Assembly: GCA_965216915.1 (NCBI GenBank)
Contig: CBDCGS010000011.1
Coordinates: 269,925 to 333,924 of the forward strand
Direction: 5' to 3'
DNA length: 64,000 nucleotides
From: Alphaproteobacteria bacterium
Lineage (GTDB): Bacteria; Pseudomonadota; Alphaproteobacteria; UBA828
Shown here: one piece after another, positions 11,611 through 32,511 of the stretch
Layout: each line of letters opens with the position of its first letter
Position numbering within the stretch: the stretch's first letter is position 1
Notes under the pieces: model-generated
The model's input: the letters and a program-made list of their open reading frames with translations, nothing else
Database searches by the model: none
Told to the model about the DNA's origin: nothing
Made by a program: the position numbers and the translations under genes

Positions 11611-12302
11611 TGGGACTGACGCCGCTCGAGAACGAAGCGATCCTGCTCAGCCTCCGCGTCGCGGGATGGGCGGTGCTGGTGAGCCTGCCCCTCGGGATCG
11701 CGGTGGCGTGGCTCCTCGCACGCCATCGCTTTCCGGGGCACACGCTCCTCAATGGCCTGGTGCACATGCCGCTCGTTGTTCCACCCGTGGTGGTGGGCTA
11801 CCTGCTGCTCCTGCTACTCGGGCGTAAGGGGCCGATCGGCAGCTGGCTCGACGATTGGTTCGGCGTAACCCTCGCGTTCACCTGGCAAGGTGCGGCGATC
11901 GCGGCCGCCGTCGTCTCGTTTCCACTCATGGTGCGCGCAATCCGTCTTTCGATCGAGGCGGTCGACGTGCGCCTCGAGGCCGCGGCCCGAACCCTCGGCG
12001 CGCCGCGCTATTGGGTGTTTGCGACGGTGAGCCTGCCTCTGATCGCCCCGGGCATCCTCACGGGCGTGATCCTCGCCTTCGCCCGCAGCCTCGGCGAGTT
12101 CGGCGCGACCATCACGTTCGTCTCCAACATCCCCGGCGAGACGCGCACGCTCCCGCTCGCCCTCTATGGCCTCACCCAGGTGCCGGGCGAGACCGACGGC
12201 GCGCTTCGGCTGATGATCATCTCGCTCGTGATCGCACTGGCCGCGCTCATCGCCTCGGAGCTCATCGCCCGGGCCGTGCGACGGCGATTGGCGGCCGGCT
12301 AA
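11610..12302 (+). CDS. modB: Molybdate ABC transporter permease
   Basis: HMPLVVPPVVVGY, FPLMVRAIRLS, FARSLGEFGATITFVSNIPGETRTLPLA. Confidence 0.95.
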   Translation: MGLTPLENEAILLSLRVAGWAVLVSLPLGIAVAWLLARHRFPGHTLLNGLVHMPLVVPPVVVGYLLLLLLGRKGPIGSWLDDWFGVTLAFTWQGAAIAAAVVSFPLMVRAIRLSIEAVDVRLEAAARTLGAPRYWVFATVSLPLIAPGILTGVILAFARSLGEFGATITFVSNIPGETRTLPLALYGLTQVPGETDGALRLMIISLVIALAALIASELIARAVRRRLAAG

Positions 12303-16655: not shown

Positions 16656-18893
16656 GTGCGCTTCTTACGACGCATCTTTCGCCGATTCAGCTGGACACAT
16701 TCGATCGCGCTCGGCGTGCTCGCGCTGTTCGTGATCCTGCGCGGGCTCGATTCCGCGCCGGTCGAAATCCTCCGGCTTAACGTTTTCGACGGCTATCAAC
16801 AGCTGAAGCCGCGCGAATCGCTGGAAAATCCGCCGATTGTCATCGTCGATGTCGATGAGGAAAGCCTCAAGGCCCATGGGCAATGGCCGTGGCCCCGCAC
16901 CCTCGTGGCATCGCTGGTCGAGGTTCTGCACCACAACGGTGTCAACGCGATCGCCTTCGACATTCTGTTTGCCGAGGAGGACCGTACATCGGGCGCCAAC
17001 ATCGCCCGAATTCTGCCCTCGCTCGGAGAGGACACCAGCAACGCGCTGAGGGCGCTGCAGAGCAACGACAGCGTGCTCGCGGACGCCTTTCAACGGGGAC
17101 GCGTGGTGCTCGGCCAGTCGGTGATCGGGCGCTCCGTCGAGGGCGATGACAGCCGCAAATCGCTAAAGGCGAATTTCGCCTACCGGTCTGCACCGGGGGT
17201 CGATGCGCGCGACCACGTCAAGCGCTATCCGGCGCTCGTGCGCAACCTGCCGATTCTGGAGGAGGCCGCCACCGGCATCGGCGTCTTCACGATCGAGCCC
17301 TCGCTCGACGGCATCGTACGCCAGGTTCCGCTTCTGCTCCGCGTGGGCGAGCACGTTTACCCGGCGCTTTCCATCGAGCTCCTGAGGGTCGCGAGCGCCC
17401 AATCGACCTTTGCCGTGCTGGCGCCGCAACCGAACGGAATCCAGTCGTTGCGCGTGCCCGCCGGCCAAGACCCGCGCGTCGTGCCCACCGAAGGCAATGG
17501 TCAAGTGTGGGTGCACTTCGCGCCCCACAATCCCGATATCTACGTGTCGGCGGCGGATATTCTTAGCGGTGCCGTCGGGCCTGAGCGCCTGGCCGGCCGA
17601 TTGGCCTTCGTCGGAACCTCGGCGATCGGCCTTCGCGACATCAAAGCGACGCCCGTCGAGGAGGCAATGCCCGGCGTCGAGGTTCACGCCCAGCTGGTCG
17701 AGACGATCCTCACCAACGATTTCCTCACCCGCCCCTTTTGGGCGATCGGCGCCGAGATCACCGCGCTGATCTTCGTCGGCCTGCTGTTGGTCGGCACGGT
17801 GCCGTTCCTCGGCGCGGTCTGGACGCTCCTCCTCGGCACAGGCATCGTCGCCGCCCTGCTCGGCCTCTCCTGGTATCTCTTTGCCGAGCAAGGGTTCCTG
17901 CTCGACATGGTCTACGTCTCGATCGCGAGCTTCGTGGTCTATGTCGTCCTGACCTACCTCAACTACATGCGCGAGGAGCGCGAGCGTCGCCAGGTGAGGG
18001 GCGCGTTCAGCCGTTACATGTCGCCGGACCTGGTCGCCCAACTCGCCGACGACCCCAGCCGGCTCAAGCTCGGCGGCGAGATGCGCGACATGACGCTTTT
18101 GTTTGCCGATATCCGGGGTTTCACGACGATCTCCGAGCAATTCGACGCCCAGGGGCTTACCCGGTTCATCAACCGTTACCTCACGCCGATGACCAACGTG
18201 ATCCTCGACCGCCGCGGCACCATCGACAAATATATGGGCGACTGCATCATGGCGTTCTGGAATGCGCCGCTCAGGGACGAGAACCATGCCGAGAACGGCG
18301 TGCGGTCCGGCCTCGCCATGCTCGCAGAGAGCGAGCGCATGAACGAGGCGCTCAAGGCGGAAGCCGAGGCGAGCGGACGCAAATACATCCCGCTCCGCAT
18401 CGGCATCGGCGTAAACACGGGCGAATGCTGCGTCGGCAACATGGGCTCCGAATTGCGCTTCGACTACTCGGTGCTCGGCGATAGCGTCAATCTTGCCTCG
18501 CGCCTGGAGGGTCAGTCCAAGAACTATGGCGTCGACTTTGTGATTGGCGAGGACACGCTTGCCCAGCTCGACGGCTTCGCCTGCCTCAAGCTCGACCGCA
18601 TCCAAGTCAAAGGCAAGACCGTACCCGTGGACATTTACTGCGTGCTCGGTGACGAGACGTTGGCGCAAGACCCGAAGTTCCGGGAGCTAGGCGAGCGTCA
18701 CGGCGAGATGCTGAACGCCTACCGCGCGCAAGACTGGAAGGTCATGCGCCGGAAGATCACCGAATGCCGCTCCCTCGACGAGGAGGGCCGCCTCAGCGTG
18801 CTCTACAACCTCTACACGGAGCGGCTCGACGAGTACGAGCGCAATCCGCCAGGCGCGGACTGGGACGGGGTCTACGTCGCGCTCAGCAAGTAG
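16656..18893 (+). CDS. CHASE2-domain class III adenylate cyclase
   Basis: CHASE2 (IVDVDEESL..GQWPWPR, FDILFAEEDR, DGIVRQVPL, PGVEVHAQ), 3 TM helices, catalytic FADIRGFT, DKYMGD, DYSVLGDSVNLASRLE. The Lys/Asp pair indicates ATP specificity. Confidence 0.95.
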   Translation: MRFLRRIFRRFSWTHSIALGVLALFVILRGLDSAPVEILRLNVFDGYQQLKPRESLENPPIVIVDVDEESLKAHGQWPWPRTLVASLVEVLHHNGVNAIAFDILFAEEDRTSGANIARILPSLGEDTSNALRALQSNDSVLADAFQRGRVVLGQSVIGRSVEGDDSRKSLKANFAYRSAPGVDARDHVKRYPALVRNLPILEEAATGIGVFTIEPSLDGIVRQVPLLLRVGEHVYPALSIELLRVASAQSTFAVLAPQPNGIQSLRVPAGQDPRVVPTEGNGQVWVHFAPHNPDIYVSAADILSGAVGPERLAGRLAFVGTSAIGLRDIKATPVEEAMPGVEVHAQLVETILTNDFLTRPFWAIGAEITALIFVGLLLVGTVPFLGAVWTLLLGTGIVAALLGLSWYLFAEQGFLLDMVYVSIASFVVYVVLTYLNYMREERERRQVRGAFSRYMSPDLVAQLADDPSRLKLGGEMRDMTLLFADIRGFTTISEQFDAQGLTRFINRYLTPMTNVILDRRGTIDKYMGDCIMAFWNAPLRDENHAENGVRSGLAMLAESERMNEALKAEAEASGRKYIPLRIGIGVNTGECCVGNMGSELRFDYSVLGDSVNLASRLEGQSKNYGVDFVIGEDTLAQLDGFACLKLDRIQVKGKTVPVDIYCVLGDETLAQDPKFRELGERHGEMLNAYRAQDWKVMRRKITECRSLDEEGRLSVLYNLYTERLDEYERNPPGADWDGVYVALSK

Positions 18894-18959: not shown

Positions 18960-20942
18960 CTAGTCGTAAGGCCAAAGCCGCGTGAAATTCGCCCCTTCGG
19001 CGGGACTCGTCGAGCCGGCCGTACGAGCCTCGCGCGCCACCGCGGACGCATGGGCGGGCGCCGTGGTCGCCACCACCTTCGTCTCCTGCTGAGCACGGGT
19101 CTCGCGCGGCGTCTCGACCACGTTTTCGCGCGATCCGGTCTCTTCTCCCAAGGCCGGCGCGATGTTCGCCATCGCCTCGGCCAAGGAACCGGCTGGGTCT
19201 TCGGCCGGCGGTGTCTCAGGCGCCGCAGAGGCCCCAACACGCTCGGCGTCGCGCACCGCGTCCTCGACGGCGATATCCCACGACCGCGCCTCGCCCCACA
19301 GCTCGCCGACGAGAGACTCGACGTTCATTTCCTCTGTCTCGTCAAAGGAGGCATCGGCGGCGCCGCCGCGTGCCGTCTTGACCTGCGTCACGGGGTCCAC
19401 GGGCGCGGGCGCCTCGGGCACACCGGCATCGGCACGCTCGCCGGTGGTCGTTTCGGGAGCGGGGCGCGCCTCGGCACCCCCGCGAATGCGCGTAATATGG
19501 TCGACGTCCTCACCGACCTCCGCGACCGCGCGACCATCGGGAAAGTCGGTTTGCGCGAGGCCGGAGATATTGTCCTGCGTAAGCCGCCCCATCGCGCCCA
19601 GCACGCGATAGACGCCGACCCGCGCATCGTGCTGGGCGGCGACCAAATTGATGCGAGCGTTGAAGAGCTCGTTTTCGGCGCCCAGCACGTTGATCACGGT
19701 CTCCCGACCGTTGTCACGCAGCTTGCGGCGCGCTTCGAAGACCTCGGCTGCGATATTGACGGCGTTTTGCAAAAGCCGCACGCGCTCGCGCGCCGTTTCG
19801 AGGCCGTGCCAGGCGAGGCGGACCTCCTCGACGACCTTGCGCCGCACGAAGTTGCTCGTGTCGATGCTCGCACGATACTGGTGCGACGATTCAGCCACAG
19901 CCGCGCGCGTCGCGAAGCCATTGAACAGCACCCAGCTCGCCTGAACCTTGGCCTTGTAGTCGCGGCGATCACCCTGCACGCCATCGAGATCCTGCTCGTA
20001 GGTCCACTCGCCGACGAGATCGACCGACGGGTAGAAATCAGCCTTTGCGATGCGTCGATCTTCTTCGGCGAGATCAATGCGCGTTGTCGCGTTGACGATC
20101 GCGGGATGCTCCGCCAGGGCGATGTCTTCGGCCGCGTCGAGCGAATCGGGCATGAGGCTGAGCGGCGGCGTGGGCATGACCAAATCATCGACGATCGCCG
20201 CGTGGCCGAACACCTGCGCGAAGCGGCTCAACGAATCCTCAAGCGCTCCCTCCAGCGCGACGCGGCGTTCCTTGGCGACTTGGAGGCTCCCCTTGGATTG
20301 CAGGACGTCGACCGTGATGCCCGAGCCGCGGCGGACGCGCTCGTCTTCGAGCTGCAACTGCCGCTTGATGTTGTTCTCCTGATCGCGCGAGAGCTCCACG
20401 AGGCGCGCATTGCGCAGGACCTCGAGGTAGGCATTGATCGCCTCGAAAATGACGTTCTGCGTGTTCTCCTCGAGCTCGACCTCGGCGACGTCCTTGGTAA
20501 GCCGCGCGCGGGCGTTGTTCGCCTCGGCCCGGAAGCCCGTGAACAGCGGCTGGGTGATGGTGACCGAGAGTTGCGCAGCATCGGCATTGTGAGACGCACC
20601 CTGGCCCGGGGCGGCAGCGCGCCGGCCGGGGCTATCGATCCGCTCATAGCCGTAGTCACCGAATAGGCGGGCGTTGGGGAGGTATTCGGAAAAGGCGCGG
20701 TTGATGCCTTCTTCGGTCGCCGCGACGTTCTCGCGCGCGGCCTTGATCTGGGGATGCGTCGCAAGCAGGGCGGCGATTTCGTCCTCGAGTGTCTCCGCCT
20801 GCGAGCCCACCGCCGGGAGGCTCAAGAGCGCAGCCGCTGCCGTCGCCGCAAGGGCGGCCGCGCGCCATTGCCTCAAGCGCGGTCTGGTCGATCGTTGCGG
20901 CGTTCGCTCGCGTTGGGCCGCACTGCCCTGCCCTGTCAGCAT
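18960..20942 (-). CDS. TolC-family outer membrane channel with a long low-complexity C-terminal extension
   Basis: HPQIKAARE, YLP, ITQPLFTGF, AYLEVLR, FYPSVDL, LFNGF, ETVINVLGAENELFNARINLV..H...YRVLGAMGRL. Confidence 0.9.
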   Translation of the reverse strand: MLTGQGSAAQRERTPQRSTRPRLRQWRAAALAATAAAALLSLPAVGSQAETLEDEIAALLATHPQIKAARENVAATEEGINRAFSEYLPNARLFGDYGYERIDSPGRRAAAPGQGASHNADAAQLSVTITQPLFTGFRAEANNARARLTKDVAEVELEENTQNVIFEAINAYLEVLRNARLVELSRDQENNIKRQLQLEDERVRRGSGITVDVLQSKGSLQVAKERRVALEGALEDSLSRFAQVFGHAAIVDDLVMPTPPLSLMPDSLDAAEDIALAEHPAIVNATTRIDLAEEDRRIAKADFYPSVDLVGEWTYEQDLDGVQGDRRDYKAKVQASWVLFNGFATRAAVAESSHQYRASIDTSNFVRRKVVEEVRLAWHGLETARERVRLLQNAVNIAAEVFEARRKLRDNGRETVINVLGAENELFNARINLVAAQHDARVGVYRVLGAMGRLTQDNISGLAQTDFPDGRAVAEVGEDVDHITRIRGGAEARPAPETTTGERADAGVPEAPAPVDPVTQVKTARGGAADASFDETEEMNVESLVGELWGEARSWDIAVEDAVRDAERVGASAAPETPPAEDPAGSLAEAMANIAPALGEETGSRENVVETPRETRAQQETKVVATTAPAHASAVAREARTAGSTSPAEGANFTRLWPYD

Positions 20943-21018: not shown

Positions 21019-22299
21019 CTATGCGTCGAGCACCAGATTGCCCTTTGGCACGGAAATGCAAGCGAGGCACGATCCGGATTCCGGCTCGGAGCCGGGCGGA
21101 TTGAGGTAATCGACATCGCCCTCTTTGATCGCAGTGATGCACGTGCCGCAATTGCCGGCCCGGCACCCAAAGTCGATATCGACGTCGTTTTCCTCGGCGA
21201 AGTCGAGGAGGGCGCCGATGTCCGGATTCCAATCGACCGTCTTACCCGATTTGGCGAAGGTCACCTGGATCCCGGCGGCCGCCTGAGATGCTTCGGTCGC
21301 ATCCTTCTGCGCCACCGGTGCCGTTTTCTTGACGGTCGCAGGGCCGAATGCCTCGTAGTGGACATGCTTCTCGGGCACGCCCCATTCCTCGAGGTCCGGA
21401 ACGATGGTGTTCATCATGGGCGGCGGGCCGCACATGTAGAAGTCGTAGTTGTTCGACGGCAGAACACGCTTGAAGAGGTCTACGCTCACCCGCTCCGCAT
21501 ATTTGTAGTCCTTGCCCTCCTCGTCATCGTCTCCGGGCGATGAGTAGCAGACGCACATGCGGACATTGTCATGCTCTCGGGCGATCCGGGCGAGATGCTC
21601 CTTCATGACGTGTTCTTTGCCATTGCGAACGCCATAGAAAAACCACGTCTCGCGCGTCGAGCCGCTCTCCACGATCTGGTTCAGCATGCTGAGCACCGGC
21701 GTCAACCCGATCCCGCCGCCGATCAGAACGACGGGTGTGTTTTTCGTCGTGTCCATGAAGAAGTGGCCGCCGGGCGCCTTGATGTCGACGATGTCGCCTT
21801 CGTCGACCTGGTCGTGGAAGAAGTTGGAGGAGAGACCGGGCGGCACGTCCGGCTTGTCGCGCGGCGGCGGCACGCGCTTGATCGAGCAGCGGTAATAGTC
21901 GGGATGATGGGGACTGTCCGACAGCGAGTAGCACCGGATCGTCGGCCGCTTCTCGCCCGGAATGTCGAGCGAGAAAGTGATGTATTGACCCGGTTCGAAC
22001 GGCGGCAGCGGCTTGCCGTCATGCGGCGAGAAATAGAACGAGCAGATGCCGCCGCCCTCCGGGGCCTTCCGCTTGATCTCGAACTTGCGAAAGCCGCTCC
22101 AAGCCCCCTCCGCCTTGGCTTGCTCGTGCTGGCGTTGGGTGACGATGCGATCGATCTCCGTTTGGAAAACCTTCGCCTGCATATCGGCCGTGCGCACGGC
22201 GGCCGCGGAGCGACGCAGGTTGCCAACGGCCGTGTTCAAGAGAACGAGCGTCAGTATCGCGAGAAAGACGATCGCGACGACCTGAATTGCGATCTCCAT
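21019..22299 (-). CDS. Membrane-anchored FAD/NAD(P)H oxidoreductase (FNR-like) with C-terminal [2Fe-2S] ferredoxin
   Basis: N-terminal TM helix; PGQY, RCYSL, GLSS, GGGIGLTP, YMCGP, EAF; CRAGNCGTC...C plant-type ferredoxin motif. Confidence 0.93.
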   Translation of the reverse strand: MEIAIQVVAIVFLAILTLVLLNTAVGNLRRSAAAVRTADMQAKVFQTEIDRIVTQRQHEQAKAEGAWSGFRKFEIKRKAPEGGGICSFYFSPHDGKPLPPFEPGQYITFSLDIPGEKRPTIRCYSLSDSPHHPDYYRCSIKRVPPPRDKPDVPPGLSSNFFHDQVDEGDIVDIKAPGGHFFMDTTKNTPVVLIGGGIGLTPVLSMLNQIVESGSTRETWFFYGVRNGKEHVMKEHLARIAREHDNVRMCVCYSSPGDDDEEGKDYKYAERVSVDLFKRVLPSNNYDFYMCGPPPMMNTIVPDLEEWGVPEKHVHYEAFGPATVKKTAPVAQKDATEASQAAAGIQVTFAKSGKTVDWNPDIGALLDFAEENDVDIDFGCRAGNCGTCITAIKEGDVDYLNPPGSEPESGSCLACISVPKGNLVLDA

Positions 22300-22319: not shown

Positions 22320-23858
22320 CTAGAACTTGCGTCGGATCTCCAGCCGTGCGCCCGCGATGTCCGCTTCCTCGACCCGGGCGCCATACATCGCGTCGGCACG
22401 CAGGATCCAAGCCTCGCTGAGCGGAAATTGGTAGCGCACGCCGGCCGCGTACTCGTCACCCGCAGCCGGGCGGCCCGGTTCGTTGTCGCTCCCCATGACC
22501 TGCACGGTCGCCACCTCGACGACGATCTGCCGGTCGAGGGCGAACAAGTACTGCAATCCAAGCGCCCCGCCGAAGGTGTCTTGGCCGCTCGCATCGAGGG
22601 TCGGGAAGCCTGTCAGGTTGTCGCTCTCGAAGTTGATGCCCGTATTGCGTAGCACGCCACCGGCGGCACCAGCGCGGGCGGCGGCTTGCGGACGATCGAA
22701 GCCGGCCCAGACGTTGAAGTAAGGAAGCAGGGTCGAGGGCAGCTCGGTGATCAGCGAATTCTCCACCAGGAAAATGACGCCGTCGGCCGTCTGCTGACCC
22801 ACCGTCGGATCCTGCGAAACGTTCCAGATGACCCGCACGCTGTTGGAGAGCCAGGCCCCGTAGCGCTTGGAGAACGCCAAGGTCAGGTTGAGATAGTCGA
22901 ACTCGTCGAAACTGTCCTTGCCGTCGATATAGGCCATACCGAGTTCCCAGAAGCCCTGGTTGGCCTCGATGAACGCGGCAGCACCGTAGATACTGACATT
23001 GTGATCGGCGGCGGCGCCATCGGCGGCCACGATCGCCGGCGTCGTCACTTTGTCAAACCCGAAGAAGAACGAGAAATCCATGTTGGAAATGTCGAGCGTC
23101 GGGCTGTTGAGCGCGGGAATGGCGAACGCGAAACCGGTGAACGCATCCTCTAGCCACACGCCGTTTTGATAGAGGAGCGGCATCAGGCCGACGGCGAACG
23201 GCAGATCCAGCGACGTGTAATTCCCGGTCAGGCCAGACCAGATGGGTCCCACGTCGCCTTCGAAGAACAACGCATCCAAGTTGAGATTGAATACGAGGTC
23301 GCAGCGGTCGCTCTGGCTGCGATCGTTACCGAAGAGCTCGCAGTTGGTAAAGTTCGCGCCCTGCTGAAGCGGACCAATGAACCAATGGATGCGCTCGGTC
23401 GAGGTGAATTGATAATCGAATTCGAGATTGAGCCGCGTGGCAACCTGGCCAAGCTCGGCCGCGCCGTTGTCGTTGTACGCGACGGCCGCGCGCCAATCAC
23501 CGTAGACGTAGAACTCGGTGAAGGTCGGGTTGAGCTCACCGAGGAAGGTCCCGTGGTCCGTGAACGGACCAGCGGTGTAGAGCTCGCGGCCCGCCTCGAT
23601 GAGAGGCCGCGTCACCACATAAGCTGACTTGCCACCATAGATCTCGAGCTGCGCGTCGATATCGTAGGGCTTGTCCTCGTAGCTTGGATCGGGCCGAAAC
23701 ACATCCCGGTCATGCTCGACCTGGCGTGCCGCCGGATCCATTTCGATCTCAGCGGAAACCACCGGGTCAACGACACCAAGAGTCAGCGCCACTGCCGCGG
23801 CAACCGCTCCCCCCGCCAGGCGGCGGGGGGAAACGGCGGAACGTCCTGTGGTATTCAC
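22320..23858 (-). CDS. Putative outer-membrane beta-barrel protein
   Basis: Signal peptide, many amphipathic aromatic-bounded strands, C-terminal beta-signal-like ARLEIRRKF ending in Phe; 2-nt gap after the pentaheme cytochrome gene. Confidence 0.7.
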   Translation of the reverse strand: MNTTGRSAVSPRRLAGGAVAAAVALTLGVVDPVVSAEIEMDPAARQVEHDRDVFRPDPSYEDKPYDIDAQLEIYGGKSAYVVTRPLIEAGRELYTAGPFTDHGTFLGELNPTFTEFYVYGDWRAAVAYNDNGAAELGQVATRLNLEFDYQFTSTERIHWFIGPLQQGANFTNCELFGNDRSQSDRCDLVFNLNLDALFFEGDVGPIWSGLTGNYTSLDLPFAVGLMPLLYQNGVWLEDAFTGFAFAIPALNSPTLDISNMDFSFFFGFDKVTTPAIVAADGAAADHNVSIYGAAAFIEANQGFWELGMAYIDGKDSFDEFDYLNLTLAFSKRYGAWLSNSVRVIWNVSQDPTVGQQTADGVIFLVENSLITELPSTLLPYFNVWAGFDRPQAAARAGAAGGVLRNTGINFESDNLTGFPTLDASGQDTFGGALGLQYLFALDRQIVVEVATVQVMGSDNEPGRPAAGDEYAAGVRYQFPLSEAWILRADAMYGARVEEADIAGARLEIRRKF

Positions 23859-23860
23859 GG

Positions 23861-25678
23861 CTACCCCTCTATCTCGAATTCCACCGTGTAATCGTCAATG
23901 TCGATCATCCACTCGTTCATCGCACGCTCCATCTCGGTCGTCGCGCCGACGAATCGCATGAAATAGATCGGCTCTGCCCGGCTGCGCATGCGCACGGCAA
24001 GGCGATAGGTCCCGGGCTTGGCGATCAGATCGCCCGGAACGGAATAGTCAGCATCCCGCGCCATGAGCGGCGGCAGGCTCCGCCCTTCCATGCGCACGAA
24101 CGGCGGATGATTGATCACCGTCACGGGCTGTGCGGGCGGCCGCAGGAACGGCAGCTGATCGACATCGAAATTGACCGGCAAGTACATCTCGCGATCGGTG
24201 CCCTTGACGTTGGTCGTCAAGAACTTCGTCTGGAGATTGAACAGCTGGTCGTCGTGCGGAATCTTGCCCGCCAGCACGTCGGCGCTGTGCAAGTCGGCCA
24301 TGTCGCCGGCGCTGTCGATGTAGCCGGATTCCCAGATATTGTTGCCGTCCGGATCGATCAGCGCGACGTTGAGCCACAGCTCCGGCTGCGCGCCGAGCGA
24401 GCCCGACGGCAGATTGTGGCCGGCGTTCTTGTTGGTCACGACGTATTTGAACGAAAGCGTCTGACCGACGCGCCGATCGCTCGAGAAGAACGGGCCATCG
24501 ACGTGCGACCCGTTGGTCATGACCTGACGCCGAAGCTCGGCTTTCTCCTCGATCAGCTCGATGTTCTGATCGATGATGGCGCGCGCTTCCTCGCGATCGA
24601 AGCGATCTTCCCAAATCTCGGGGAACGCGATCTCCTCCATCTCACCGGCATCGACCGCCTCTTCATATTCATCCTCCCACTCCTCGACGCCCCACTCGGA
24701 CCGGTAATCGAACTGGAGCCACTCCTCCATCGTCCAGTTCTCGGCCTCGGGGTTGTGCGGGAAGATGCCCGGATGCGCGATCGGATAACCCGGACCCGCG
24801 AAGGCATGGCTATGCCGGACCCGGTCTGGATTGACCGGCCGCCCGTCGACCACCGCCGCCGGACCGCGCTTGAAGCCATCCGGCACGCCCGGCGTGTAGC
24901 TCATATGGCAGTCCTGGCAGGTCACGCCTTCCTTGAACGCGGGCGAATCGCGGAACTGATCCCACACGACCTCGAGCTTGATGCCGAGGTTCACCTTCAC
25001 CTGGTGGCACGACACGCAGAACTCGGATTCGGAGAGCTGGGTGAACTTGATGCCGTCATTGTGGATCTGATTGCCGCGTTCGGTCTCATCGGTCGCGACC
25101 TTCCAGCCGCCCTTGTCCTCGACCACCGCGCGCACGCCATCGCCGCCGATGTTGCCGTAGACCGGCTCGAAAATCTTGCCGGGCTCGATGTTGCGTTGGC
25201 CGTTGACCTTGTAATAGCTGTCGCCGACGCGGTGGCACGTGATGCAGGTGATACCTTCTCGGGAGACCTGCGAACGCTCCCACACCGGCATCTCGCGCGC
25301 TTCGCCCATCTGCGTGCCGACCTGCGCGTGGCAACGCACGCAGAATGTGTTGATGGTCGGCGCCAAGCTGTTGATGGCGTTCTCGAACTTGTGGAACATC
25401 GGCGAGATCGACGCGTAGGCATGGTTCGAGGAGGCCCATTCCCAATAGATCTCCTCATGACAGGCCATGCATTTCGACGCGCTCGGGAAATCATCCTCAT
25501 CGAGGATCGCCGCGTGCATCGCAGCAGCATCCTCGTCGCTGATCTCCATCGCCTCGTCGGCCCCCTCGTGCTCGTCCGCGAGGACCGGTTGGGTGGCCCA
25601 GCAAGCCGCGGCGAAAAATCCCGCCGCGAAAAGGGGCAGCCAGCGTTTGCGCCAAGGTTTTTTCATCAGCTCACTCAT
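23861..25678 (-). CDS. Periplasmic pentaheme c-type cytochrome with a C-terminal beta-rich domain
   Basis: Signal peptide; CMACH, CVRCH, CITCH, CVSCH, CQDCH; AGHNLPSG motif in the C-terminal half. Confidence 0.9.
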   Translation of the reverse strand: MSELMKKPWRKRWLPLFAAGFFAAACWATQPVLADEHEGADEAMEISDEDAAAMHAAILDEDDFPSASKCMACHEEIYWEWASSNHAYASISPMFHKFENAINSLAPTINTFCVRCHAQVGTQMGEAREMPVWERSQVSREGITCITCHRVGDSYYKVNGQRNIEPGKIFEPVYGNIGGDGVRAVVEDKGGWKVATDETERGNQIHNDGIKFTQLSESEFCVSCHQVKVNLGIKLEVVWDQFRDSPAFKEGVTCQDCHMSYTPGVPDGFKRGPAAVVDGRPVNPDRVRHSHAFAGPGYPIAHPGIFPHNPEAENWTMEEWLQFDYRSEWGVEEWEDEYEEAVDAGEMEEIAFPEIWEDRFDREEARAIIDQNIELIEEKAELRRQVMTNGSHVDGPFFSSDRRVGQTLSFKYVVTNKNAGHNLPSGSLGAQPELWLNVALIDPDGNNIWESGYIDSAGDMADLHSADVLAGKIPHDDQLFNLQTKFLTTNVKGTDREMYLPVNFDVDQLPFLRPPAQPVTVINHPPFVRMEGRSLPPLMARDADYSVPGDLIAKPGTYRLAVRMRSRAEPIYFMRFVGATTEMERAMNEWMIDIDDYTVEFEIEG

Positions 25679-27650
25679 TGTCGTCTCTCGCCATCCGCAG
25701 GTCAAAACCGGGCTCAAAGTGATACACGTGGCAAAGTTGGCAATCCTGCCGCACCTGGCCTTCGTTGTGGCATTGAGCGCATGATTCCTGACTTATCGGA
25801 TAAAAGTTGCTCTCGAAGTGATGGGGGTCACTCTGTCCAAATGACTCCGCGAACTGCGCCGCCTCATTGATCTTATGACACACTCTGCAGCCGCTGTCCG
25901 GATCCATGAGGTTGACGCCTTCCGGATCGAGGAGTGTGAGATGCGTCCCGTGCGAATAGCTCGTGTAGGGACGCGCTTCAGACGGCCGGTAACGCCATTC
26001 GAGTTCCAGCGCGCCGTCAGCGTTGCCTGAAACCGCATGGCATTTCGTGCAGGCGCCGACGCCATCCGAGCGGCTGAGCACGCTGTCGCGCATCATCGTC
26101 GCGTATTCCACCAGGTCGTCCTCGCCCGCTTCGTGCACGCTCTCGACGGAAAACTCGAGCCAGGCACGCGCCACCGCATCGCCATGGTCGAGCGGCCGGT
26201 ATTTAAGCTCGACCAGATCGCCGTACCAACCGCCGAAATCCGGATCCATCGGCGCCTCATATTCGAGGTTGTTCGCCCACGCGCAAGCCACTCGCTTCAC
26301 GAGCTCGGCGTTGAGGCCGGACAACAGGTCCGTCGCATTGCCGCCGCGCTCCTCGACGAGCTCCGCGATCGGCGCCGGACCCTCTTCCATCAACCGCGCC
26401 ACGAACTCTTGAATCGGCTCGCTATATTCTTCCATGTCGTCCGTCGGCACGCCCAGCAGATAGGCGATCACGGGCGTCGGCTCGTCCACCGAGGCGGGGT
26501 CGTACCACTCCTCCTCCTCGTCGTCCTCCGACATATCGAGCATGCCCGCGTCGTCGGCCTCCATGGCCTCGTCGATCATCTCCTTCAGGCCGGTCATCTG
26601 CTCCATCACGGCTTCCCACGCTTCCAGCGTGGGGCCGCACGCTTCCATGACCCGCTCGGGATCGATGAGGTTCTCCTCGAACTCCGGGAGCCGAAGCAGG
26701 ATGAGGTCGCGCGTGACCACCGTGTCGTAGTGGCAGGTCGCGCACGCCTCGAAGCCGGTCGGCTGGACCGCCTGCGCCGCGGTGTCGACCTCGTGGCAGG
26801 TGGTGCAGTCCTCGGGCGCGAGATCGGCGTAGCGTTGATCCACGAAATGCTTGGTGATGTGCGAGGAATGGTTGAAGGCGATCGACGTGCGCCGGTCGTG
26901 CGGGAATGTGTTGCCGAACGACGGATGGTTGTCGCCGAAATCATCCGCCTGCTTCTCATGGCAGAGATTGCATTGCCCGTCGGAGAGGTTCGTCAGGTCG
27001 TAGTCCTCTCCCTTGTGCTCGGTGTGGCACATGACGCATTGGGTCGGCGGGGCGTTGGCGTTGCTCGTCTGGACCAAGCCCGCGTTGTTGTGGGCAAGCC
27101 GCGCATCGCCGCCAAAGGTATGACAATCGAGGCATTGGCCGGTCATGTCCTGCTCGTGGAAGGCCGCCAGGAACCAGTCGCCTGCATCCTCCCCATGCGC
27201 CGTGTGGCAGGAGACGCACCCAGTCTCGGCGGTGAAGTTGGCATGTCCACCGGTGAGTGTGCCGGCGCTCTTCACGGCGTCACCGGCATCGCCACCGAAG
27301 GTCAGGAAGACGGCGATCAAGGCCACCACGGTCGCAAACGCCCCGCCCGCAAGAAACTGGCGCACGCGACGGATGGTGCGCCGTGGTCGACACGGTGGAT
27401 GCTGTTGCGAGCACGTGCCGTCGGACTTCGGCCCGGTGTCGCACGGGCCGCCGAAGAGCGGCGAGCGGCGGCACTCGAAGCGATCGCCGACCTGCGCCGG
27501 TCGGCACTCGGTTGTCCCACCGCATCGTCCATTCACGGTGGGCCCGAACTCGCAAGGCTTGTCCCAGGCGGCGCCGCGGCCGCACCGGAAGCGCAGAGTC
27601 GGCCGCTCGTAACGGCTGACGTCGTGCTTGAATTTCTCCGGATCCATCAT
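25671..27650 (-). CDS. Membrane-anchored decaheme c-type cytochrome with an N-terminal Cys-rich domain
   Basis: Ten CxxCH (CVSCH, CLDCH, CVMCH, CNLCH, CTTCH, CATCH, CTKCH, CRVCH, CAQCH, CQLCH); one TM helix after an 8-Cys N-terminus; ATGA-coupled to the upstream gene. Confidence 0.92.
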   Translation of the reverse strand: MMDPEKFKHDVSRYERPTLRFRCGRGAAWDKPCEFGPTVNGRCGGTTECRPAQVGDRFECRRSPLFGGPCDTGPKSDGTCSQQHPPCRPRRTIRRVRQFLAGGAFATVVALIAVFLTFGGDAGDAVKSAGTLTGGHANFTAETGCVSCHTAHGEDAGDWFLAAFHEQDMTGQCLDCHTFGGDARLAHNNAGLVQTSNANAPPTQCVMCHTEHKGEDYDLTNLSDGQCNLCHEKQADDFGDNHPSFGNTFPHDRRTSIAFNHSSHITKHFVDQRYADLAPEDCTTCHEVDTAAQAVQPTGFEACATCHYDTVVTRDLILLRLPEFEENLIDPERVMEACGPTLEAWEAVMEQMTGLKEMIDEAMEADDAGMLDMSEDDEEEEWYDPASVDEPTPVIAYLLGVPTDDMEEYSEPIQEFVARLMEEGPAPIAELVEERGGNATDLLSGLNAELVKRVACAWANNLEYEAPMDPDFGGWYGDLVELKYRPLDHGDAVARAWLEFSVESVHEAGEDDLVEYATMMRDSVLSRSDGVGACTKCHAVSGNADGALELEWRYRPSEARPYTSYSHGTHLTLLDPEGVNLMDPDSGCRVCHKINEAAQFAESFGQSDPHHFESNFYPISQESCAQCHNEGQVRQDCQLCHVYHFEPGFDLRMARDDNE

Positions 27651-28462
27651 AGCGCGTACACGTTCACGACGATCACGTGCCAGAACATCAGCCCGAGCAC
27701 GGCCGCGGCGAGCGGCACGTGCACCAGCAGCCACATCTTCATGATCGACTGGCAGGCGTAGTGGAGGTCGATGTCGTTCTTGTAGCGCGCGAGCGCCGTG
27801 ATCGTTTCGAGATGCGCCCGCTCGGCGTCGTTCAGGTAACGATCGATGGTCTGGTGCTGATGGCTGATCCAGTGCTCGCCGGCCTGACCGCCGAGCGCGT
27901 GGTTGAGGTAGAAGCGCGGCTTCCGGAAGTACCAGCGCATGGTCTCGAGGTAATGACGCGCGAGGGTGTCGCTGCCGGTCTCATCTGCGCAGGCGCGCAC
28001 CGCAGCCTCGGCCTTCTCGCGCACCTCGGCGATCTCCGCCGGAATGCGCTCGTAGATGATCTCGAAATCGGATTGCACGAGGCGCTTCGGGTAATAGCGC
28101 TGAATGATGTAGCCGAAGATCCCACTCAACGAGACCATGTAGAACGTCACGGCAAGCGCCTGCTCATAGGCGCCGCTCGGCCAGAAGCTCCCGGTGTGCA
28201 CGAAGAAGATCGCGATGGCCACCATGCCGCCGACCGCGTGGAACGCGAGCCAATAGGCGACCCGCCCGAGCGGCACCATCGAGAGCTTCTTGCGCGTGTT
28301 GAAGATGGCGAGCGCCAGCATCAGGGCGAACAGGGCGTAGCCGGTGATAAATTCCGAGCGGCCCAGGCTCAGCCGCGCCTCGTTCGCGTAGACGGTGAGC
28401 GAGATGATCGCGGCGATCGCGATCAGCCAGAGGACCGCGTAGCGGACGAGGATCGCGTTCAC
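27647..28462 (-). CDS. Integral membrane protein, putative diheme cytochrome b
   Basis: About 5 TM segments; two helices each carry His at i and i+14 (HAVGGMVAIAIFFVH; HVPLAAAVLGLMFWH); GTG start overlaps the upstream stop (GTGA). Confidence 0.75.
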   Translation of the reverse strand: MNAILVRYAVLWLIAIAAIISLTVYANEARLSLGRSEFITGYALFALMLALAIFNTRKKLSMVPLGRVAYWLAFHAVGGMVAIAIFFVHTGSFWPSGAYEQALAVTFYMVSLSGIFGYIIQRYYPKRLVQSDFEIIYERIPAEIAEVREKAEAAVRACADETGSDTLARHYLETMRWYFRKPRFYLNHALGGQAGEHWISHQHQTIDRYLNDAERAHLETITALARYKNDIDLHYACQSIMKMWLLVHVPLAAAVLGLMFWHVIVVNVYAL

Positions 28463-30132
28463 AGCGTCGCCCCCCGGAAGGTCTCGTCGCCCTTGAAGTC
28501 GACCCGCCTCAGCGCGTCGTGCGGACAGGCGCGCACACAGGCCGGCCCACCCGGATTGCCGGCGCAAAGATCGCACTTCGTCGCCTTCATGATCGGCTTC
28601 TGGCTGTCCGGATCGCGCAGCAGCTGCCCTTGCATGTCGCGAATCTCGACCAGACGGATGTTGTTGTAGGGGCAGGAGTTCGCGCAGGTTCCGCAGCCGA
28701 TGCAGGTGTCGTCATTGACCACCACCGCGCCCGTTGACAGCGAACGGTGAATGGCGCCCGTGGGGCAGCCGATCATGCACACCGGGTCGGCGCAATGCAT
28801 GCAGGCATTAGCCACCATCCAATGGTCGAACGTGCGCCCGTGGCGCGCGAAGCGCGGGTTGCCGCCATGGGTCGAGGCGCACGCACGCACGCAATCATCG
28901 CAGCGCACACAGCGATTGATGTCGATCAACATCGCCATTGTGCCGTTGATGAAGCGCTGCTCGACCGACCATTCCATCGGCGCATCCGCCGAGACGGCGC
29001 GCGTCGCCAGATCCGTAAGCGGCGTTGGGGCCTGACGCAAATTGGGGAACACATACTTCTCGAGGATCGGCGCCGGCACGCGCAGCAGGTCGACATAGCC
29101 GAGCGCCGTGAGCGTGGTCTGCAAGGAGACATCGGTGCCGTCGCGGCCCGCCCACAGCTCGTCGAAGCCGAACACGTCGCCGGCGCCGAGATAAGTCAGC
29201 GTGCGCTGGCCCTTGCCCATACTGATCGACACCCGTGCGAAACCCGCGCGAATCATCAAGAGGCCGTCCGGATACTCGCCCTGCTTGGCGATCACCGGCT
29301 CCTTGTCGGCCTTGCCCTGGTCGCGCATGCGCTTGTAGCTGACGTGCCAGTCGAAAGCGCCGTGGGTCTCGAACAGCGTGGCGTCACTCACCTCCTGGAT
29401 TTGCTCGTCGGTGAGACGCGCGAACAACGGCGACTCGCGAAGGTGCACCTTGAGAGCATTCTCGCGGTAGCGCTCGTCGATGGTGCGCCGCCAGCCGGGA
29501 TCGTATTTGCGCAACTCGCGCAGACCCTGCCAGCGGATCTCGAGCAGCTCCGCTTCTTCCTCCGCGAAGATCGTTGCGGTGCGCGGCACGCGCCCGAGCG
29601 CCGCGAGCTCCCCAAACAGGGTGCCGGCGCCAAGCTCGGCGGTGTTGTGCTTGTCGACCACCGCCGGCACGTCCTGGAGGAACACGCGGGTCGACCCGAG
29701 ATCGGCATCGCCCGACTCCCGGCGCACCGCCTGGCCGCCATAGCGGTGCGTGTCACGCACCTCGGGCACGATGCGGTTGGTCCAGAGCTGTGCCAATGCC
29801 TCCACGAAGGTCTTCTTGCGGGTGACCTGGCGGCCGATCAGGTTGCGCGGCAAGCCGGGTGCGAGCACCACGCGCAGCTTGCCCGAGATCACCAAGAACG
29901 CCGAATTGCCGTAGTCACCTTCGCGAACGACGAGGTCGCCCGGCCGATAGCTGACGAGCCGAGTGTCATTCCGGATGATGCCCTGGAGCGGGGTGTGCTT
30001 GGGGAAGCTATCGGCGTCGATCGCCGCGAACTCGGACAGGTCCATGAGCCGCTCTGCGTCGGCATCTGACATATCCGGCCCGAACGGCGCGTCCCAACGT
30101 TGCGGGCGCGCCATCATGGCGACGTTTGCCAA
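28459..30132 (-). CDS. Tandem cyclic-nucleotide-binding domains fused to a 4x[4Fe-4S] (DmsB/NrfC-type) ferredoxin
   Basis: VVREGDYGNSAFLVISG...FGELAALGRVPRTAT; second domain KQGEYPDGLLMIRAG...GDVFG; 16 Cys in CVRCDDCVRAC, CMHCADPVCMIGC, CIGCGTCANSC, CDLC...CVRAC. Confidence 0.92.
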   Translation of the reverse strand: MANVAMMARPQRWDAPFGPDMSDADAERLMDLSEFAAIDADSFPKHTPLQGIIRNDTRLVSYRPGDLVVREGDYGNSAFLVISGKLRVVLAPGLPRNLIGRQVTRKKTFVEALAQLWTNRIVPEVRDTHRYGGQAVRRESGDADLGSTRVFLQDVPAVVDKHNTAELGAGTLFGELAALGRVPRTATIFAEEEAELLEIRWQGLRELRKYDPGWRRTIDERYRENALKVHLRESPLFARLTDEQIQEVSDATLFETHGAFDWHVSYKRMRDQGKADKEPVIAKQGEYPDGLLMIRAGFARVSISMGKGQRTLTYLGAGDVFGFDELWAGRDGTDVSLQTTLTALGYVDLLRVPAPILEKYVFPNLRQAPTPLTDLATRAVSADAPMEWSVEQRFINGTMAMLIDINRCVRCDDCVRACASTHGGNPRFARHGRTFDHWMVANACMHCADPVCMIGCPTGAIHRSLSTGAVVVNDDTCIGCGTCANSCPYNNIRLVEIRDMQGQLLRDPDSQKPIMKATKCDLCAGNPGGPACVRACPHDALRRVDFKGDETFRGATL

Positions 30133-30338: not shown

Positions 30339-31277
30339 CTACTTGTAGCTATCCTTGCTAGGCAACTTGCCGCCGACCTCTCCGCTGAGGTCTTTGCCCT
30401 TGATCGCTTCGACCATTGCCCGCGCGGCTTCAGCCGTCGGGTTGGCAAGCAAATCAGCCGCCGCGCTGACACTGCTCAAGGCGTCCCGAGCCGCGGCCGC
30501 GCGTGCTTCCTGGAACTCCTTGTACTTGGCCGATACGTCATTTGCCGCAGCCTGGGTCGCGGACACGAGCTTCGCCGCCTGGCCGACGACGAACATGTTG
30601 GCAGCCTCCTGCGGCGTCATCTCCGCATTCACGGTCATGTTGGGCGGATAGAACCGATGGCGCACCGAGCCCTGGCTGTAGCGCACCAGCTCCCAATCGG
30701 GAACGGTGGGATGGCCGGCCTCGAGCATCTTGGCCAAGGTGTCGGCCGGGACGTTGGGGTTGGCGAGACCGTGGCACTCCTGGCAATTCTCGGCGACGCC
30801 ATAGGTGTCGCTCGGCCAACGCATGCCGGCCGCTGCGGCGTCCGCGATGCGCTTGGCCTTGTGCTCGGCTGATTCATCCTCGCGCTTGACGCTCGGTCCG
30901 CCATAGTCGTTGTGGATCTTTAACCAGTCGGACGATGCGCCGTGGCAGCTTTCACATGACGGGCCAGCCTTCGGGCTCGCCTTGCCGCCGGGCTTCTTGG
31001 CAATCATCGTGTAGTGGCACTGCGTGCACACCTCACTCTTCTTCATGCTTTTCTCGCCGATGGCCTTCAGAATGCCCTTGGCCTTGTCGGACTTGTGCAC
31101 CGTCTTGAGTGATTTGGCGTGCGCCGTGGCTTCCCAGATCTCGTGCTCCGCGCGATGACACTCGGCGCAAACCTTGGGCCCCTGATTGTAGGCCTCGGCT
31201 TTCGCACCGATTGTCGGCGCAATCATGAAGGCCGCGAACAGCATCGCCGCCGCCACCCCAAATGCCGCAAATCGCAT
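30339..31277 (-). CDS. Periplasmic tetraheme c-type cytochrome (c554-like)
   Basis: Signal peptide (AKA-EA); CAECH, CTQCH, CESCHG, CQECH. Confidence 0.9.
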   Translation of the reverse strand: MRFAAFGVAAAMLFAAFMIAPTIGAKAEAYNQGPKVCAECHRAEHEIWEATAHAKSLKTVHKSDKAKGILKAIGEKSMKKSEVCTQCHYTMIAKKPGGKASPKAGPSCESCHGASSDWLKIHNDYGGPSVKREDESAEHKAKRIADAAAAGMRWPSDTYGVAENCQECHGLANPNVPADTLAKMLEAGHPTVPDWELVRYSQGSVRHRFYPPNMTVNAEMTPQEAANMFVVGQAAKLVSATQAAANDVSAKYKEFQEARAAAARDALSSVSAAADLLANPTAEAARAMVEAIKGKDLSGEVGGKLPSKDSYK

Positions 31278-31436: not shown

Positions 31437-32261
31437 TCACGCGAGGCGGATGCGCATGTTCTCGCGCGCGACGAAGGCGCCGCGCCAGGTCCGCCGGGCT
31501 TCTGCTTCGACGCGCTCCATGAAGCGGTCCTCGTGGTCCGGATCGTGGTGGAAGATCGCGAGCGAGCGCACGTTGGCGGCGCGCGCCAACCTGACGCCCT
31601 CCTGCCATGTCGAATGACCCCAGCCGACCTTGCTGGGGAACTCGTCGTCGGTGTACGTCGAATCGTAGATCATCAGGTCGGTGCCCTCGACGAGCCCGAG
31701 AATGTTCTCGTCCGGTTGATCGGGGATATGCTCGGTGTCCGTCACGTAGCAGACCGATTTGCCGGCATAGTCCAGGCGATAGCCGGTCGCGCCATTGGGG
31801 TGGTTGAGCGGCGCGGTTCGCACCTTGATGCCACCAGTGAGCTCGAACGCGTCGCCCGCCTCGAAATCCTCGAAGCGGAGCGTCGCCTTCATCGCCTCGA
31901 GCGGCACCGGGAACATCGGGTTCTGCATCTGCCCCGACAGCACCTGCTTCAGCCCGCCCCGCGTGTTCAGATGGCCCGCCATCAGGACGAACTCGTGGTC
32001 CGGCCGAAAGGCCGGCGCGAAGAACGGGAAGCCCGTGATGTGATCCCAGTGCGTGTGGGAGAACAGGAGCGTCGACCGACTGATCCCCTTGCGGAAATTC
32101 CAGTGGCCGAGATTGCGCACACCGGTGCCAGCGTCGAGGATCAGCTGGGTGCCACCGGCGTTGACCTCGACGCAGCTCGTGTTGCCGCCGAACACGATGT
32201 GGCTCGGTGACGGACAGGCAATGCTTCCACGCACGCCCCAGAACTTAACCTTCAGACCCAT
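31437..32261 (-). CDS. MBL-fold metallo-hydrolase (RNase Z / phosphodiesterase-like)
   Basis: KFWGVRGS..GGNTSCVEV, DAGTG, SHTHWDH, NHP, TDTEH, WGHS, FHHDP. Confidence 0.9.
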   Translation of the reverse strand: MGLKVKFWGVRGSIACPSPSHIVFGGNTSCVEVNAGGTQLILDAGTGVRNLGHWNFRKGISRSTLLFSHTHWDHITGFPFFAPAFRPDHEFVLMAGHLNTRGGLKQVLSGQMQNPMFPVPLEAMKATLRFEDFEAGDAFELTGGIKVRTAPLNHPNGATGYRLDYAGKSVCYVTDTEHIPDQPDENILGLVEGTDLMIYDSTYTDDEFPSKVGWGHSTWQEGVRLARAANVRSLAIFHHDPDHEDRFMERVEAEARRTWRGAFVARENMRIRLA

Positions 32262-32511
32262 CGCGCGCCTCCGGGCGACGCTGACCCCCACGGTCTTTCT
32301 GAACGTGCCGACCCATGCAGACGAGCCCTTGTCGCGACCAAGGCCCCGTGTGGCCCGTACGCGTCGGCACGCCCGTTCTCAGCGCATTTCACCCGCCGGC
32401 AGTCCGGCCCGCTGTGACCGCCGTCACACGCATGCGCGGCTCTTGTTCTTGAGCGGCAGTCCCCATGAGCACGTCGGTGCCAGGCCCCGGCACCCCACGG
32501 CACGACGCGTG

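Follow-up and report, generated by a model that had tools for sequence, protein, structure and literature searches.

PtdE, a predicted cytoplasmic iron–sulfur subunit with tandem cyclic nucleotide-binding domains in the seven-gene ptd cluster of an alphaproteobacterium

The ptdABCDEFG operon has been named in a preprint (bioRxiv 10.1101/2023.11.21.568154), the available part of which states that its function is completely unknown. The products are described there as a pentahaem protein (ptdA), a porin (ptdB), an FAD/NAD(P) oxidoreductase (ptdC), a tetrahaem protein (ptdD), an Fe-S protein with a cyclic nucleotide monophosphate (cNMP) domain (ptdE), a ferric-reductase-like membrane protein (ptdF) and a decahaem protein (ptdG), and ptdAB are reported to be highly transcribed in a marine oxygen-deficient zone (10.1101/2023.11.21.568154). 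Among the full texts searched (subscription journals lay outside the search), this preprint, as far as it was available, is the only one that describes a cNMP/Fe-S fusion or the ptd operon. All seven genes are contiguous on the minus strand, from 31277 to 21019 and in the order D-E-F-G-A-B-C, in the stretch of 64,000 nucleotides analyzed here (to be referred to as the window; Alphaproteobacteria bacterium, assembly GCA_965216915.1, contig CBDCGS010000011.1, positions 269,925 to 333,924). The subject of this report is the ptdE gene of the window. Its product is an ortholog of the PtdE already named, an assignment made by architecture and gene context as given in the available part of the preprint, and not by sequence comparison.

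The reading of PtdE favored here, with moderate confidence, is that of the cytoplasmic Fe-S subunit of a seven-gene electron conduit (Ptd), with a first sensor domain that probably binds cAMP or cGMP and tunes the flow of electrons. It is built on the domain architecture, residue conservation, synteny, natural gene fusions and a passing model of the PtdE-PtdF complex, all computed here. Compared with the available part of the preprint, the new elements are four Fe-S clusters instead of two, the conservation statistics of the phosphate-binding cassette, the fusions of PtdE with PtdF and the variants with FHA domains. Also new in this sense are the PtdF His pairs, a model of docking in which a terminal cluster and an insertion of PtdE meet PtdF, and the Cys-rich N-terminus of PtdG.

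The window and the preprint, in its available part, agree in the domain make-up of PtdE, in the tetrahaem gene upstream and the ferric-reductase-like and decahaem genes downstream, and in the presence of the full set in an alphaproteobacterial genome. In the window, ptdE has for neighbors a tetrahaem (4 CXXCH motifs), a decahaem (10) and a pentahaem (5) cytochrome, a putative ferric-reductase-like protein, a putative porin and a protein with the domains of PtdC. There are three differences. The genes are in the order DEFG-ABC in the window and ABCDEFG in the preprint. The preprint gives PtdE two 4Fe-4S clusters, whereas 16 conserved Cys residues, aligned to HycB3, point to four here. PtdG is periplasmic in the preprint, whereas the PtdG of the window has a conserved segment rich in Cys that precedes its membrane anchor. 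An earlier note on this DNA had taken the fusion of cNMP domains to a ferredoxin for an unusual effector type. Unusual it is, but it had not gone unnoticed, as the preprint names PtdE and databases label the fusion automatically ('Fe-S-cluster-containing dehydrogenase component/CRP-like cAMP-binding protein').

The features of ptdE, with its two cyclic nucleotide-binding (CNB) domains, are as follows (AF2, AlphaFold2 model).

28459..30132, minus strand: ptdE, encoding a 557-residue cytoplasmic protein with CNB-A, CNB-B and a putative 4x[4Fe-4S] ferredoxin domain (open reading frame, Pfam, AF2)
29434..30000, minus strand: CNB-A (domain 1), about residues 45-233, including the B/C helix (Pfam, PKG/PKA alignments, Foldseek)
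29644..29865, minus strand: insertion in the β-roll of CNB-A, about residues 90-163, with a helix at 109-118 (gap in the PKG alignment, AF2)
29572..29616, minus strand: phosphate-binding cassette FGELAALGRVPRTAT, residues 173-187 (homolog columns)
29038..29415, minus strand: CNB-B (domain 2), about residues 240-365; the cassette, FGFDEL without Arg, is degenerate (best Pfam stretch 278-359)
28495..28941, minus strand: ferredoxin domain with predicted sites for four clusters, about residues 398-546; its 16 Cys form four groups (Fer4_11, HycB3/HycB4 alignment)

The gene is present in a single copy in the genome of the window. Its start codon is TTG, which gives 557 residues; the database copy begins five residues later at an ATG and has 552. 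The presence of cNMP-binding and 4Fe-4S domains in one protein is recognized by Pfam with scores above the cut-offs for both, namely cNMP_binding in three stretches (E value 2.4e-25, 88.8 bits against a cut-off of 27.5) and Fer4_11 at residues 438-541 (39.7 bits against 26.2). No kinase, channel or helix-turn-helix (HTH) family, and no C-terminal HTH of the CRP/FNR type, is found among the 13 Pfam families matched by PtdE at E ≤ 0.01. The AF2 model has a pLDDT (predicted local distance difference test) of 92 and a pTM (predicted template modeling score) of 0.88. In a Foldseek search, the N-terminal half has the PKA regulatory subunit and PKG as its top matches, through their tandem CNB domains (E value 1e-17). 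There is neither a hydrophobic segment nor an export signal in the sequence, so PtdE is expected to be cytoplasmic. Library representatives that share the match number 8141 at E ≤ 0.001 and 658 at E ≤ 1e-30, and the fusion of domains is therefore more than chance. Fer4_11, the AF2 model, Foldseek and the Cys alignment together bear out the description in the earlier note of cNMP domains joined to a four-cluster ferredoxin without a DNA-binding domain.

PtdE has exactly 16 Cys residues in total, all within residues 408-536 and arranged in four groups. In a set of 85 diverse homologs (the query and 84 of the 150 listed representatives, of 530-630 residues), every one of these Cys is kept in 82-84 sequences. 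A search through the PDB, with a profile of 83 homologs, finds the best solved relatives of this domain in HycB3 (E value 3.6e-28) and HycB4 (4.9e-24) of the hydrogen-dependent CO2 reductase (7qv7) and in HycB of formate hydrogenlyase (7z0s), which are cytoplasmic four-cluster proteins. All four Cys groups match those of HycB3 in 7qv7, group by group. Based on this alignment, the C-terminal domain of PtdE is predicted to be a wire of four [4Fe-4S] clusters. With the HycB/HydN-type ferredoxins PtdE shares the four CxxCxxCxxxC-type groups, a soluble and unexported nature, and the position of a wire between modules. In comparison, PtdE has about 395 additional residues of sensor domains, and its partner is a five-helix, His-rich membrane protein.

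The spacing of the Cys residues, described in the earlier note as that of DmsB/NrfC, is indeed common to the NrfC/DmsB type, Fer4_11 and the HycB3 alignment. NrfC, DmsB, PsrB, DsrO, HmcB and ActB are periplasmic subunits that are exported by the twin-arginine translocation (Tat) pathway and are seated on quinol-interacting subunits of the NrfD type. PtdE shares their Cys spacing and their membership in Fer4_11. On the other hand, it has no signal or hydrophobic segment, and its docking site in the model described below is the cytoplasmic face of PtdF. In particular, no twin-arginine export signal, a mark of the NrfC/DmsB subunits, and no subsequent hydrophobic segment are found at its N-terminus MANVAMMARPQRWDAPF. 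The scores of PtdE are also below the NCBIfam equivalog cut-offs for DmsB (64.3 bits against 214.1), HybA (63.4 against 263), HydN (59.5 against 260), DsrO (55.5 against 200) and NrfC (47.5 against 377.6).

CNB-like domains together with Fe-S clusters recall FNR, and the automatic name of PtdE includes 'CRP-like cAMP-binding protein'. The protein could thus be imagined as a CRP/FNR-like regulator or redox sensor, with clusters that sense oxygen or the redox state instead of carrying electrons. We consider this very improbable, because the 13 Pfam families include no HTH or other output family, the arrangement of the four clusters is that of HycB, a wire and not a sensor, and ptdE is invariably joined to genes for a membrane partner and cytochromes, and in some cases fused to the former (see below).

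In its N-terminal half, PtdE resembles the PKA regulatory subunit and PKG in having tandem CNB-A and CNB-B domains on a long B/C helix, and the cassette of domain 1 is equal in length and has the Gly-Glu and Arg residues. The differences are that the output is an Fe-S domain and not a kinase, that domain 1 has an insertion of about 60 residues, and that domain 2 lacks the Arg. Domain 1 has both the β-roll fold with the cassette helix and the Gly-Glu and Arg residues (G174, E175 and R184) of functional cNMP domains. Its cassette FGELAALGRVPRTAT, at residues 173-187, corresponds exactly to the coordinates 29572-29616 at which an intact cassette had been noticed. In the 85 diverse homologs, G174 is conserved in 83, E175 in 70, R181 in 79, R184 in 71 (with His in 7) and Thr or Ser at position 187 in 78. 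The pocket of domain 1 is probably functional for a cyclic nucleotide, to judge from these residues.

The insertion is located inside the β-roll of domain 1, as had been observed earlier. Its length, given then as about 70 residues, is about 60, because PKG aligns in two pieces (residues 178-221 to profile positions 52-95, and 218-310 to positions 159-258) and the AF2 model has, between a strand at 86-89 and the strands 149-151 and 164-167, loops with two short helices. Residues 131-150 form a loop of low confidence (pLDDT 63-66). The length of the insertion is similar in most homologs. For domain 2, G322 is kept in 83 and E325 in 65 of the 85 sequences, and the conserved Arg is absent throughout the family, syntenic orthologs included. 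The description of its cassette (FGFDEL, without Arg) as degenerate is thus extended to the whole family.

Conservation of the cassette Glu and Arg among homologs had been named in the earlier note as a check of its idea, and the idea has come through it. In 79 syntenic orthologs, which are PtdE proteins from ptd clusters of many phyla (one locus, L070, was dropped for its short match), Gly-Glu is kept in 79/79 and Arg in 78/79. Among the more distant sequences, 140 of the 150 listed representatives could be mapped at the cassette positions, and 106 of them keep Gly-Glu and Arg. As to which nucleotide is bound, a Thr or Ser after the cassette Arg occurs both in cGMP-preferring and in cAMP-preferring domains. 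HCN channels and MloK1 have Arg-Thr/Ser in the cassette, yet cAMP is preferred or accepted. The Thr after the cassette Arg in PtdE does not decide between cAMP and cGMP, and the nucleotide is not readable from the sequence.

The gene that follows ptdE encodes its putative membrane partner.

27647..28462, minus strand: ptdF, 271 residues, five hydrophobic segments, invariant H75, H89, H248 and H262 (alignment, AF2)

The GTG start of ptdF overlaps the stop of ptdE (GTGA, 4 nt). In a sample of 80 ptdE loci from a species-genome collection, with counts based on the loci that have room for the gene in question, ptdF is located directly after ptdE in 77/77 and ptdG is next in 71/71. The ptdD gene lies directly upstream of ptdE in 65/70 loci, and ptdA, ptdB and ptdC are all within 10 kb in 28/30. 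Moreover, PtdE and PtdF are found as natural fusions in three representative clusters (P0124, P0129 and P0143), with PtdF parts that are 32-40% identical. Full-length fusions of 842-856 residues recur on separate contigs (P0124, P0129, P0143, P0280, P0283 and P0285), one of them from metagenome-assembled genomes (MAGs) of Methylococcales.

The AF2 model of PtdF has a pLDDT of 93.7. Alignment of 41 orthologs shows 13 invariant columns, which include H75, H89, H248 and H262 in 41/41. The first two of these residues are in the helix 68-90 and the other two in the last helix (212-270), with a spacing of 14 residues in each pair. PtdF thus has the two His pairs, 13-14 apart on two transmembrane helices, of the ferric-reductase-domain type, and their spacing is as expected for two haems b that would be stacked across the membrane. 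By the positive-inside rule, H75 and H248 are placed on the cytoplasmic side.

The predicted complex of PtdE and PtdF passes with a score of 0.72, against 0.00 for the best control. The mark for this score is attained by 58 of 80 solved complexes and by 2 of 110 mismatched pairs. The runs show at least 95% agreement in contacts, with partner pLDDT values of at least 84. On the PtdE side the interface in the model is formed by the first and fourth Cys groups (residues 405-421 and 526-539) together with residues 429-439 and 109-116, and on the PtdF side by residues 58-72, 121-137 and 238-242, where the helices with H75 and H248 end on the cytoplasmic side. Residues 109, 112-113 and 115-116 of the PtdE insertion are in contact with PtdF. 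As the first and fourth Cys groups form the contact, a terminal cluster would be located at the PtdF interface. The model supports binding between PtdE and PtdF, short of demonstrating it. The electron-transfer part of the earlier interpretation is backed by the synteny, the fusions, this model and the conservation of the PtdF His residues.

In the Tmc, Hmc and DsrMKJOP complexes of sulfate reducers, and in NOX, FRE, STEAP and MsrQ, a cytoplasmic redox module passes electrons to a two-haem membrane subunit and on to a periplasmic or outer acceptor. Ptd shares this module logic, as well as two His pairs about 14 residues apart on two helices. There are differences as well. Fold searches gave no relation of PtdF to the two-haem folds, and the cytoplasmic partner in Ptd is a sensor-tagged polyferredoxin instead of an HdrD-like or flavin domain.

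The other members of the gene cluster, and a nearby cyclase gene, are the following.

30339..31277, minus strand: ptdD, tetrahaem cytochrome c of 312 residues whose N-terminus has a hydrophobic segment resembling a signal (4 CXXCH, Cytochrome_C554 E value 6e-13)
25671..27650, minus strand: ptdG, 659 residues, Cys-rich at the N-terminus, a single hydrophobic segment at 96-126, 10 CXXCH
23861..25717, minus strand: ptdA, pentahaem cytochrome c (5 CXXCH, Pfam multihaem families)
22320..23858, minus strand: ptdB, 512-residue putative outer-membrane barrel (signal-like N-terminus, C-terminal Phe)
21019..22299, minus strand: ptdC, 426 residues, anchored at the N-terminus, followed by a reductase module for FAD and NAD(P)H and a 2Fe-2S domain of the plant type (NAD_binding_1, FAD_binding_6, Fer2)
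16656..18893, plus strand: CHASE2-class III nucleotide cyclase, 745 residues, one gene beyond ptdC (CHASE2 E value 3e-57, Guanylate_cyc 8.5e-21)

The ATG start of ptdG overlaps the stop of ptdF (ATGA, 4 nt). PtdA has a weak match to cytochrome c552 (5ze8, E value 0.003), and the product of ptdB matches zero Pfam families. PtdC matches the reductase module of flavohaemoglobin (3ozu, E value 1.9e-58) and phthalate dioxygenase reductase (2pia, 2.1e-23), and would be the natural electron donor to PtdE. At the N-terminus of PtdG (window 27366-27650, minus strand), a segment of about 90 residues with some ten Cys is found ahead of the membrane anchor and is conserved across phyla, with the pattern YERP..RCGR..C..GP..G.CGG..EC.P....CRR..GG.C..GP..DG.C...PPC.PR. 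It is possibly a cytoplasmic metal-binding domain, and PtdG, judged by this segment, is not purely periplasmic.

The CHASE2 cyclase is a possible source of the ligand of PtdE. Such a cyclase is located near the ptd genes in close relatives of the genome of the window. In two other loci (L068 and L071, with PtdE 50-51% identical to that of the window) it lies one gene beyond ptdC and is co-directional. In a gammaproteobacterial MAG (L046) a CHASE2 cyclase is found 3 kb from ptdD. In an Omnitrophica MAG (L030) the cyclase adjoins ptdG and is the sole PF00211 match in 2.2 Mb. At this last locus, ptdF is split over two overlapping frames (11666-12348), and ptdD, ptdA, ptdB and ptdC are not found within 10 kb; it may be a decaying or mis-assembled cluster. 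A class III cyclase is present in 20 of the 21 ptdE-bearing genomes searched. The linkage of cyclase and ptd genes is suggestive. As a general rule it was rejected, with cyclase-domain matches in 12 of the 80 loci only and no linkage in any of five further genomes.

A second kind of signaling domain is found in variants of PtdE. FHA domains, which read phosphothreonine, are present in seven representatives, either N-terminal or between the CNB domains, and the cassette is kept in 7/7. To judge from these variants, the N-terminal half of PtdE behaves as a signal-input module. Among the 10 longer forms of PtdE at E ≤ 1e-30, 9 carry FHA domains, with lengths of about 1233 residues, and no flavoprotein domain is found in any of the 10. 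The FHA-bearing proteins are P0125, P0127, P0150, P0179, P0213, P0235, P0240 and P0271-P0278, which include a group of about 1233 residues from Planctomycetota.

Several results weigh against the reading of PtdE as a nucleotide-tuned subunit of an outward conduit. For the membrane partner, a Foldseek search of PtdF against the PDB gives zero matches at E ≤ 0.001. In a wide structural search the top matches are sensor domains of chemoreceptors (Z score 10.4), a designed two-haem protein has a Z score of 8.3, and STEAP4 is found at rank 23 with a Z score of 7.7, within the noise of helical-bundle look-alikes. Pfam matches for 41 PtdF members at E ≤ 1 are marginal (Ferric_reduct 3, Ni_hydr_CYTB 7, DUF4405 7), and the name of the Atlas cluster of PtdF is one assigned automatically. 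The complex prediction is built on alignments of our own, and the pair is in effect a split gene; recall of a known structure is unlikely as the source of the pass, because Foldseek finds no like solved complex for PtdF. For the ligand, one syntenic ortholog (L073) has Leu at the position of the cassette Arg, and 34 of the 140 distant representatives lack Glu (16), Arg (14) or both (4). For the cyclase, the best ortholog of the CHASE2 enzyme is far away or on another contig in 5/5 further genomes. The 4.68-Mb genome of the window has 29 cyclase-domain matches, so that chance alone would put one a few kb away in about 1 case of 8, and one ptdE-bearing MAG of Kiritimatiellae, of unknown completeness, gives no PF00211 match. 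Finally, none of the computed results fixes the direction of electron flow.

The loss of Glu and/or Arg in the 34 distant representatives means that cNMP binding is not universal across the PtdE family. These columns point to selection on the cassette among the closer relatives, the clade with the ptdE of the window, and to its decay in some distant branches. The same loss, with the fusion retained, would be expected if PtdE is the wire of Ptd and its CNB domains are a docking scaffold, or bind another molecule or partner, with no second-messenger control. Domain 2, degenerate throughout the family, and the contacts of the domain-1 insertion with PtdF in the model, a structural role, agree with this explanation, as do the patchy linkage to cyclases and the one host MAG without a class III cyclase. 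In addition, the structural matches of PtdE include, by the titles of their entries, trypanosome PKA regulatory subunits that bind nucleosides and not cAMP. Against this stands the finding that 78 of the 79 syntenic orthologs, from many phyla, keep Gly-Glu and Arg in a cassette of the canonical length, which is hard to explain other than by selection for contacts with phosphate and ribose. The cassette is also kept in all seven FHA-bearing variants. Overall, we regard a purely structural or otherwise occupied pair of CNB domains as rather unlikely, and a ligand-binding domain 1 is preferred.

The direction of flow also has to be considered. Porin-cytochrome systems run both ways, in iron oxidizers and in iron reducers. 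The available part of the preprint places ptd genes in nitrite oxidizers and gives an NrfA-like COG for PtdA (10.1101/2023.11.21.568154). Electrons could accordingly be taken from a donor in the periplasm or outside the cell and travel by way of the cytochromes, PtdF and PtdE to PtdC or another cytoplasmic acceptor, with PtdE, regulated or not, as the exit of the wire instead of its entry. PtdC, however, is an NAD(P)H-oxidizing module of the flavohaemoglobin type with a 2Fe-2S domain, and such modules normally donate electrons. Reduction of NAD(P)+ by cytochromes c would moreover need an input of energy, and no part of the gene cluster suggests one. An inward conduit is thus improbable, and outward flow is the preferred direction.

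The ptd genes are found in Alpha-, Beta- and Gammaproteobacteria, Nitrospinota, Nitrospirota, Planctomycetota, Verrucomicrobiota, Omnitrophota and Elusimicrobiota. The occurrence is patchy: of 201 genomes sampled from the class of the window, 9 have ptdE, that of the window included. The cluster is also present in Kordiimonadales bacterium IMCC3096 (L027), a chromosome record whose title does not label it as a MAG. A FastTree phylogeny of the 79 PtdE orthologs mixes phyla (without support values, and with labels taken from MAG titles), which suggests gene transfer or binning errors. The PtdE proteins of eight loci (L014, L015, L021, L025, L030, L034, L040 and L042) nest among alphaproteobacterial sequences in this tree; their MAGs are labeled Planctomycetota, Chloroflexota, Flavobacteriales, Nitrospinota, Omnitrophota, Verrucomicrobiota and Elusimicrobiota.

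Other observations concern the surroundings of the cluster and its possible regulation. A gene for a hydrolase of the metallo-β-lactamase (MBL) fold lies just upstream of ptdD (window 31437-32291, minus strand), a position that is kept in 8 of 80 loci. A role as a cNMP phosphodiesterase was considered and is not supported, with 46 bits against a cut-off of 400 for NF041851 and RNase Z as the sole PDB match (E value 1.9e-07). Between ptdC and the cyclase gene is a TolC-type outer membrane efflux protein (OEP) with two repeats and a C-terminal tail of about 200 residues rich in Ala, Glu and Pro (window 18960-20942, minus strand), a placement kept only in close relatives. A scan for sigma-70 promoters gave 1 site, with 2.1 expected. 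A search for FNR/FixK-type boxes gave 17 sites, with 9.2 expected, one of them with two mismatches 75-88 nt upstream of ptdD. Within ptdE, the perfect palindrome TTGATGTCGATCAA (window 28916-28929) encodes the conserved L-I-D-I-N ahead of the first Cys group. Its sequence is the FNR/FixK-box consensus, and the palindrome is probably a coding coincidence. Neither the site upstream of ptdD nor that inside ptdE is taken as functional.

We infer the following for Ptd, both as to its cofactors and as to the binding of a ligand, its gating and the direction in which electrons flow. Electrons would most likely pass from NAD(P)H to PtdC (FAD and 2Fe-2S), PtdE, PtdF, then PtdD and PtdG, and finally PtdA together with the barrel PtdB. 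The C-terminal wire of PtdE would dock, with one terminal [4Fe-4S] cluster, on the cytoplasmic face of PtdF beside His75 and His248. These two residues, and His89 with His262, would hold two stacked haems b across the inner membrane. The probable ligand of domain 1 is cAMP or cGMP, and this domain may tune docking or electron flow by way of the B/C helix and the insertion that touches PtdF, whereas domain 2 would be a ligand-blind scaffold. Taken further, and only tentatively, the cyclic nucleotide, made in some lineages by the linked, envelope-sensing CHASE2 cyclase, might bind CNB-A and shift the insertion and the terminal cluster on PtdF, thereby opening or closing an NAD(P)H-fed path across both membranes.

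Export of electrons from the cell is the probable role of Ptd, and a second messenger may control it. Candidate substrates are iron, manganese, a nitrogen oxide and oxygen. A built-in sensor would have its rationale in that export fed by NAD(P)H and bypassing the quinone pool would waste energy unless it were tightly switched. The known outputs of cNMP-binding domains are kinases, channels, exchange factors and transcription factors, and a cNMP domain that steers an electron wire would, if true, be a new kind of output. A second messenger would then act directly on a redox wire, with no intervening kinase, channel or transcription factor, and the FHA-bearing variants would place the same valve under the control of Ser/Thr phosphorylation.

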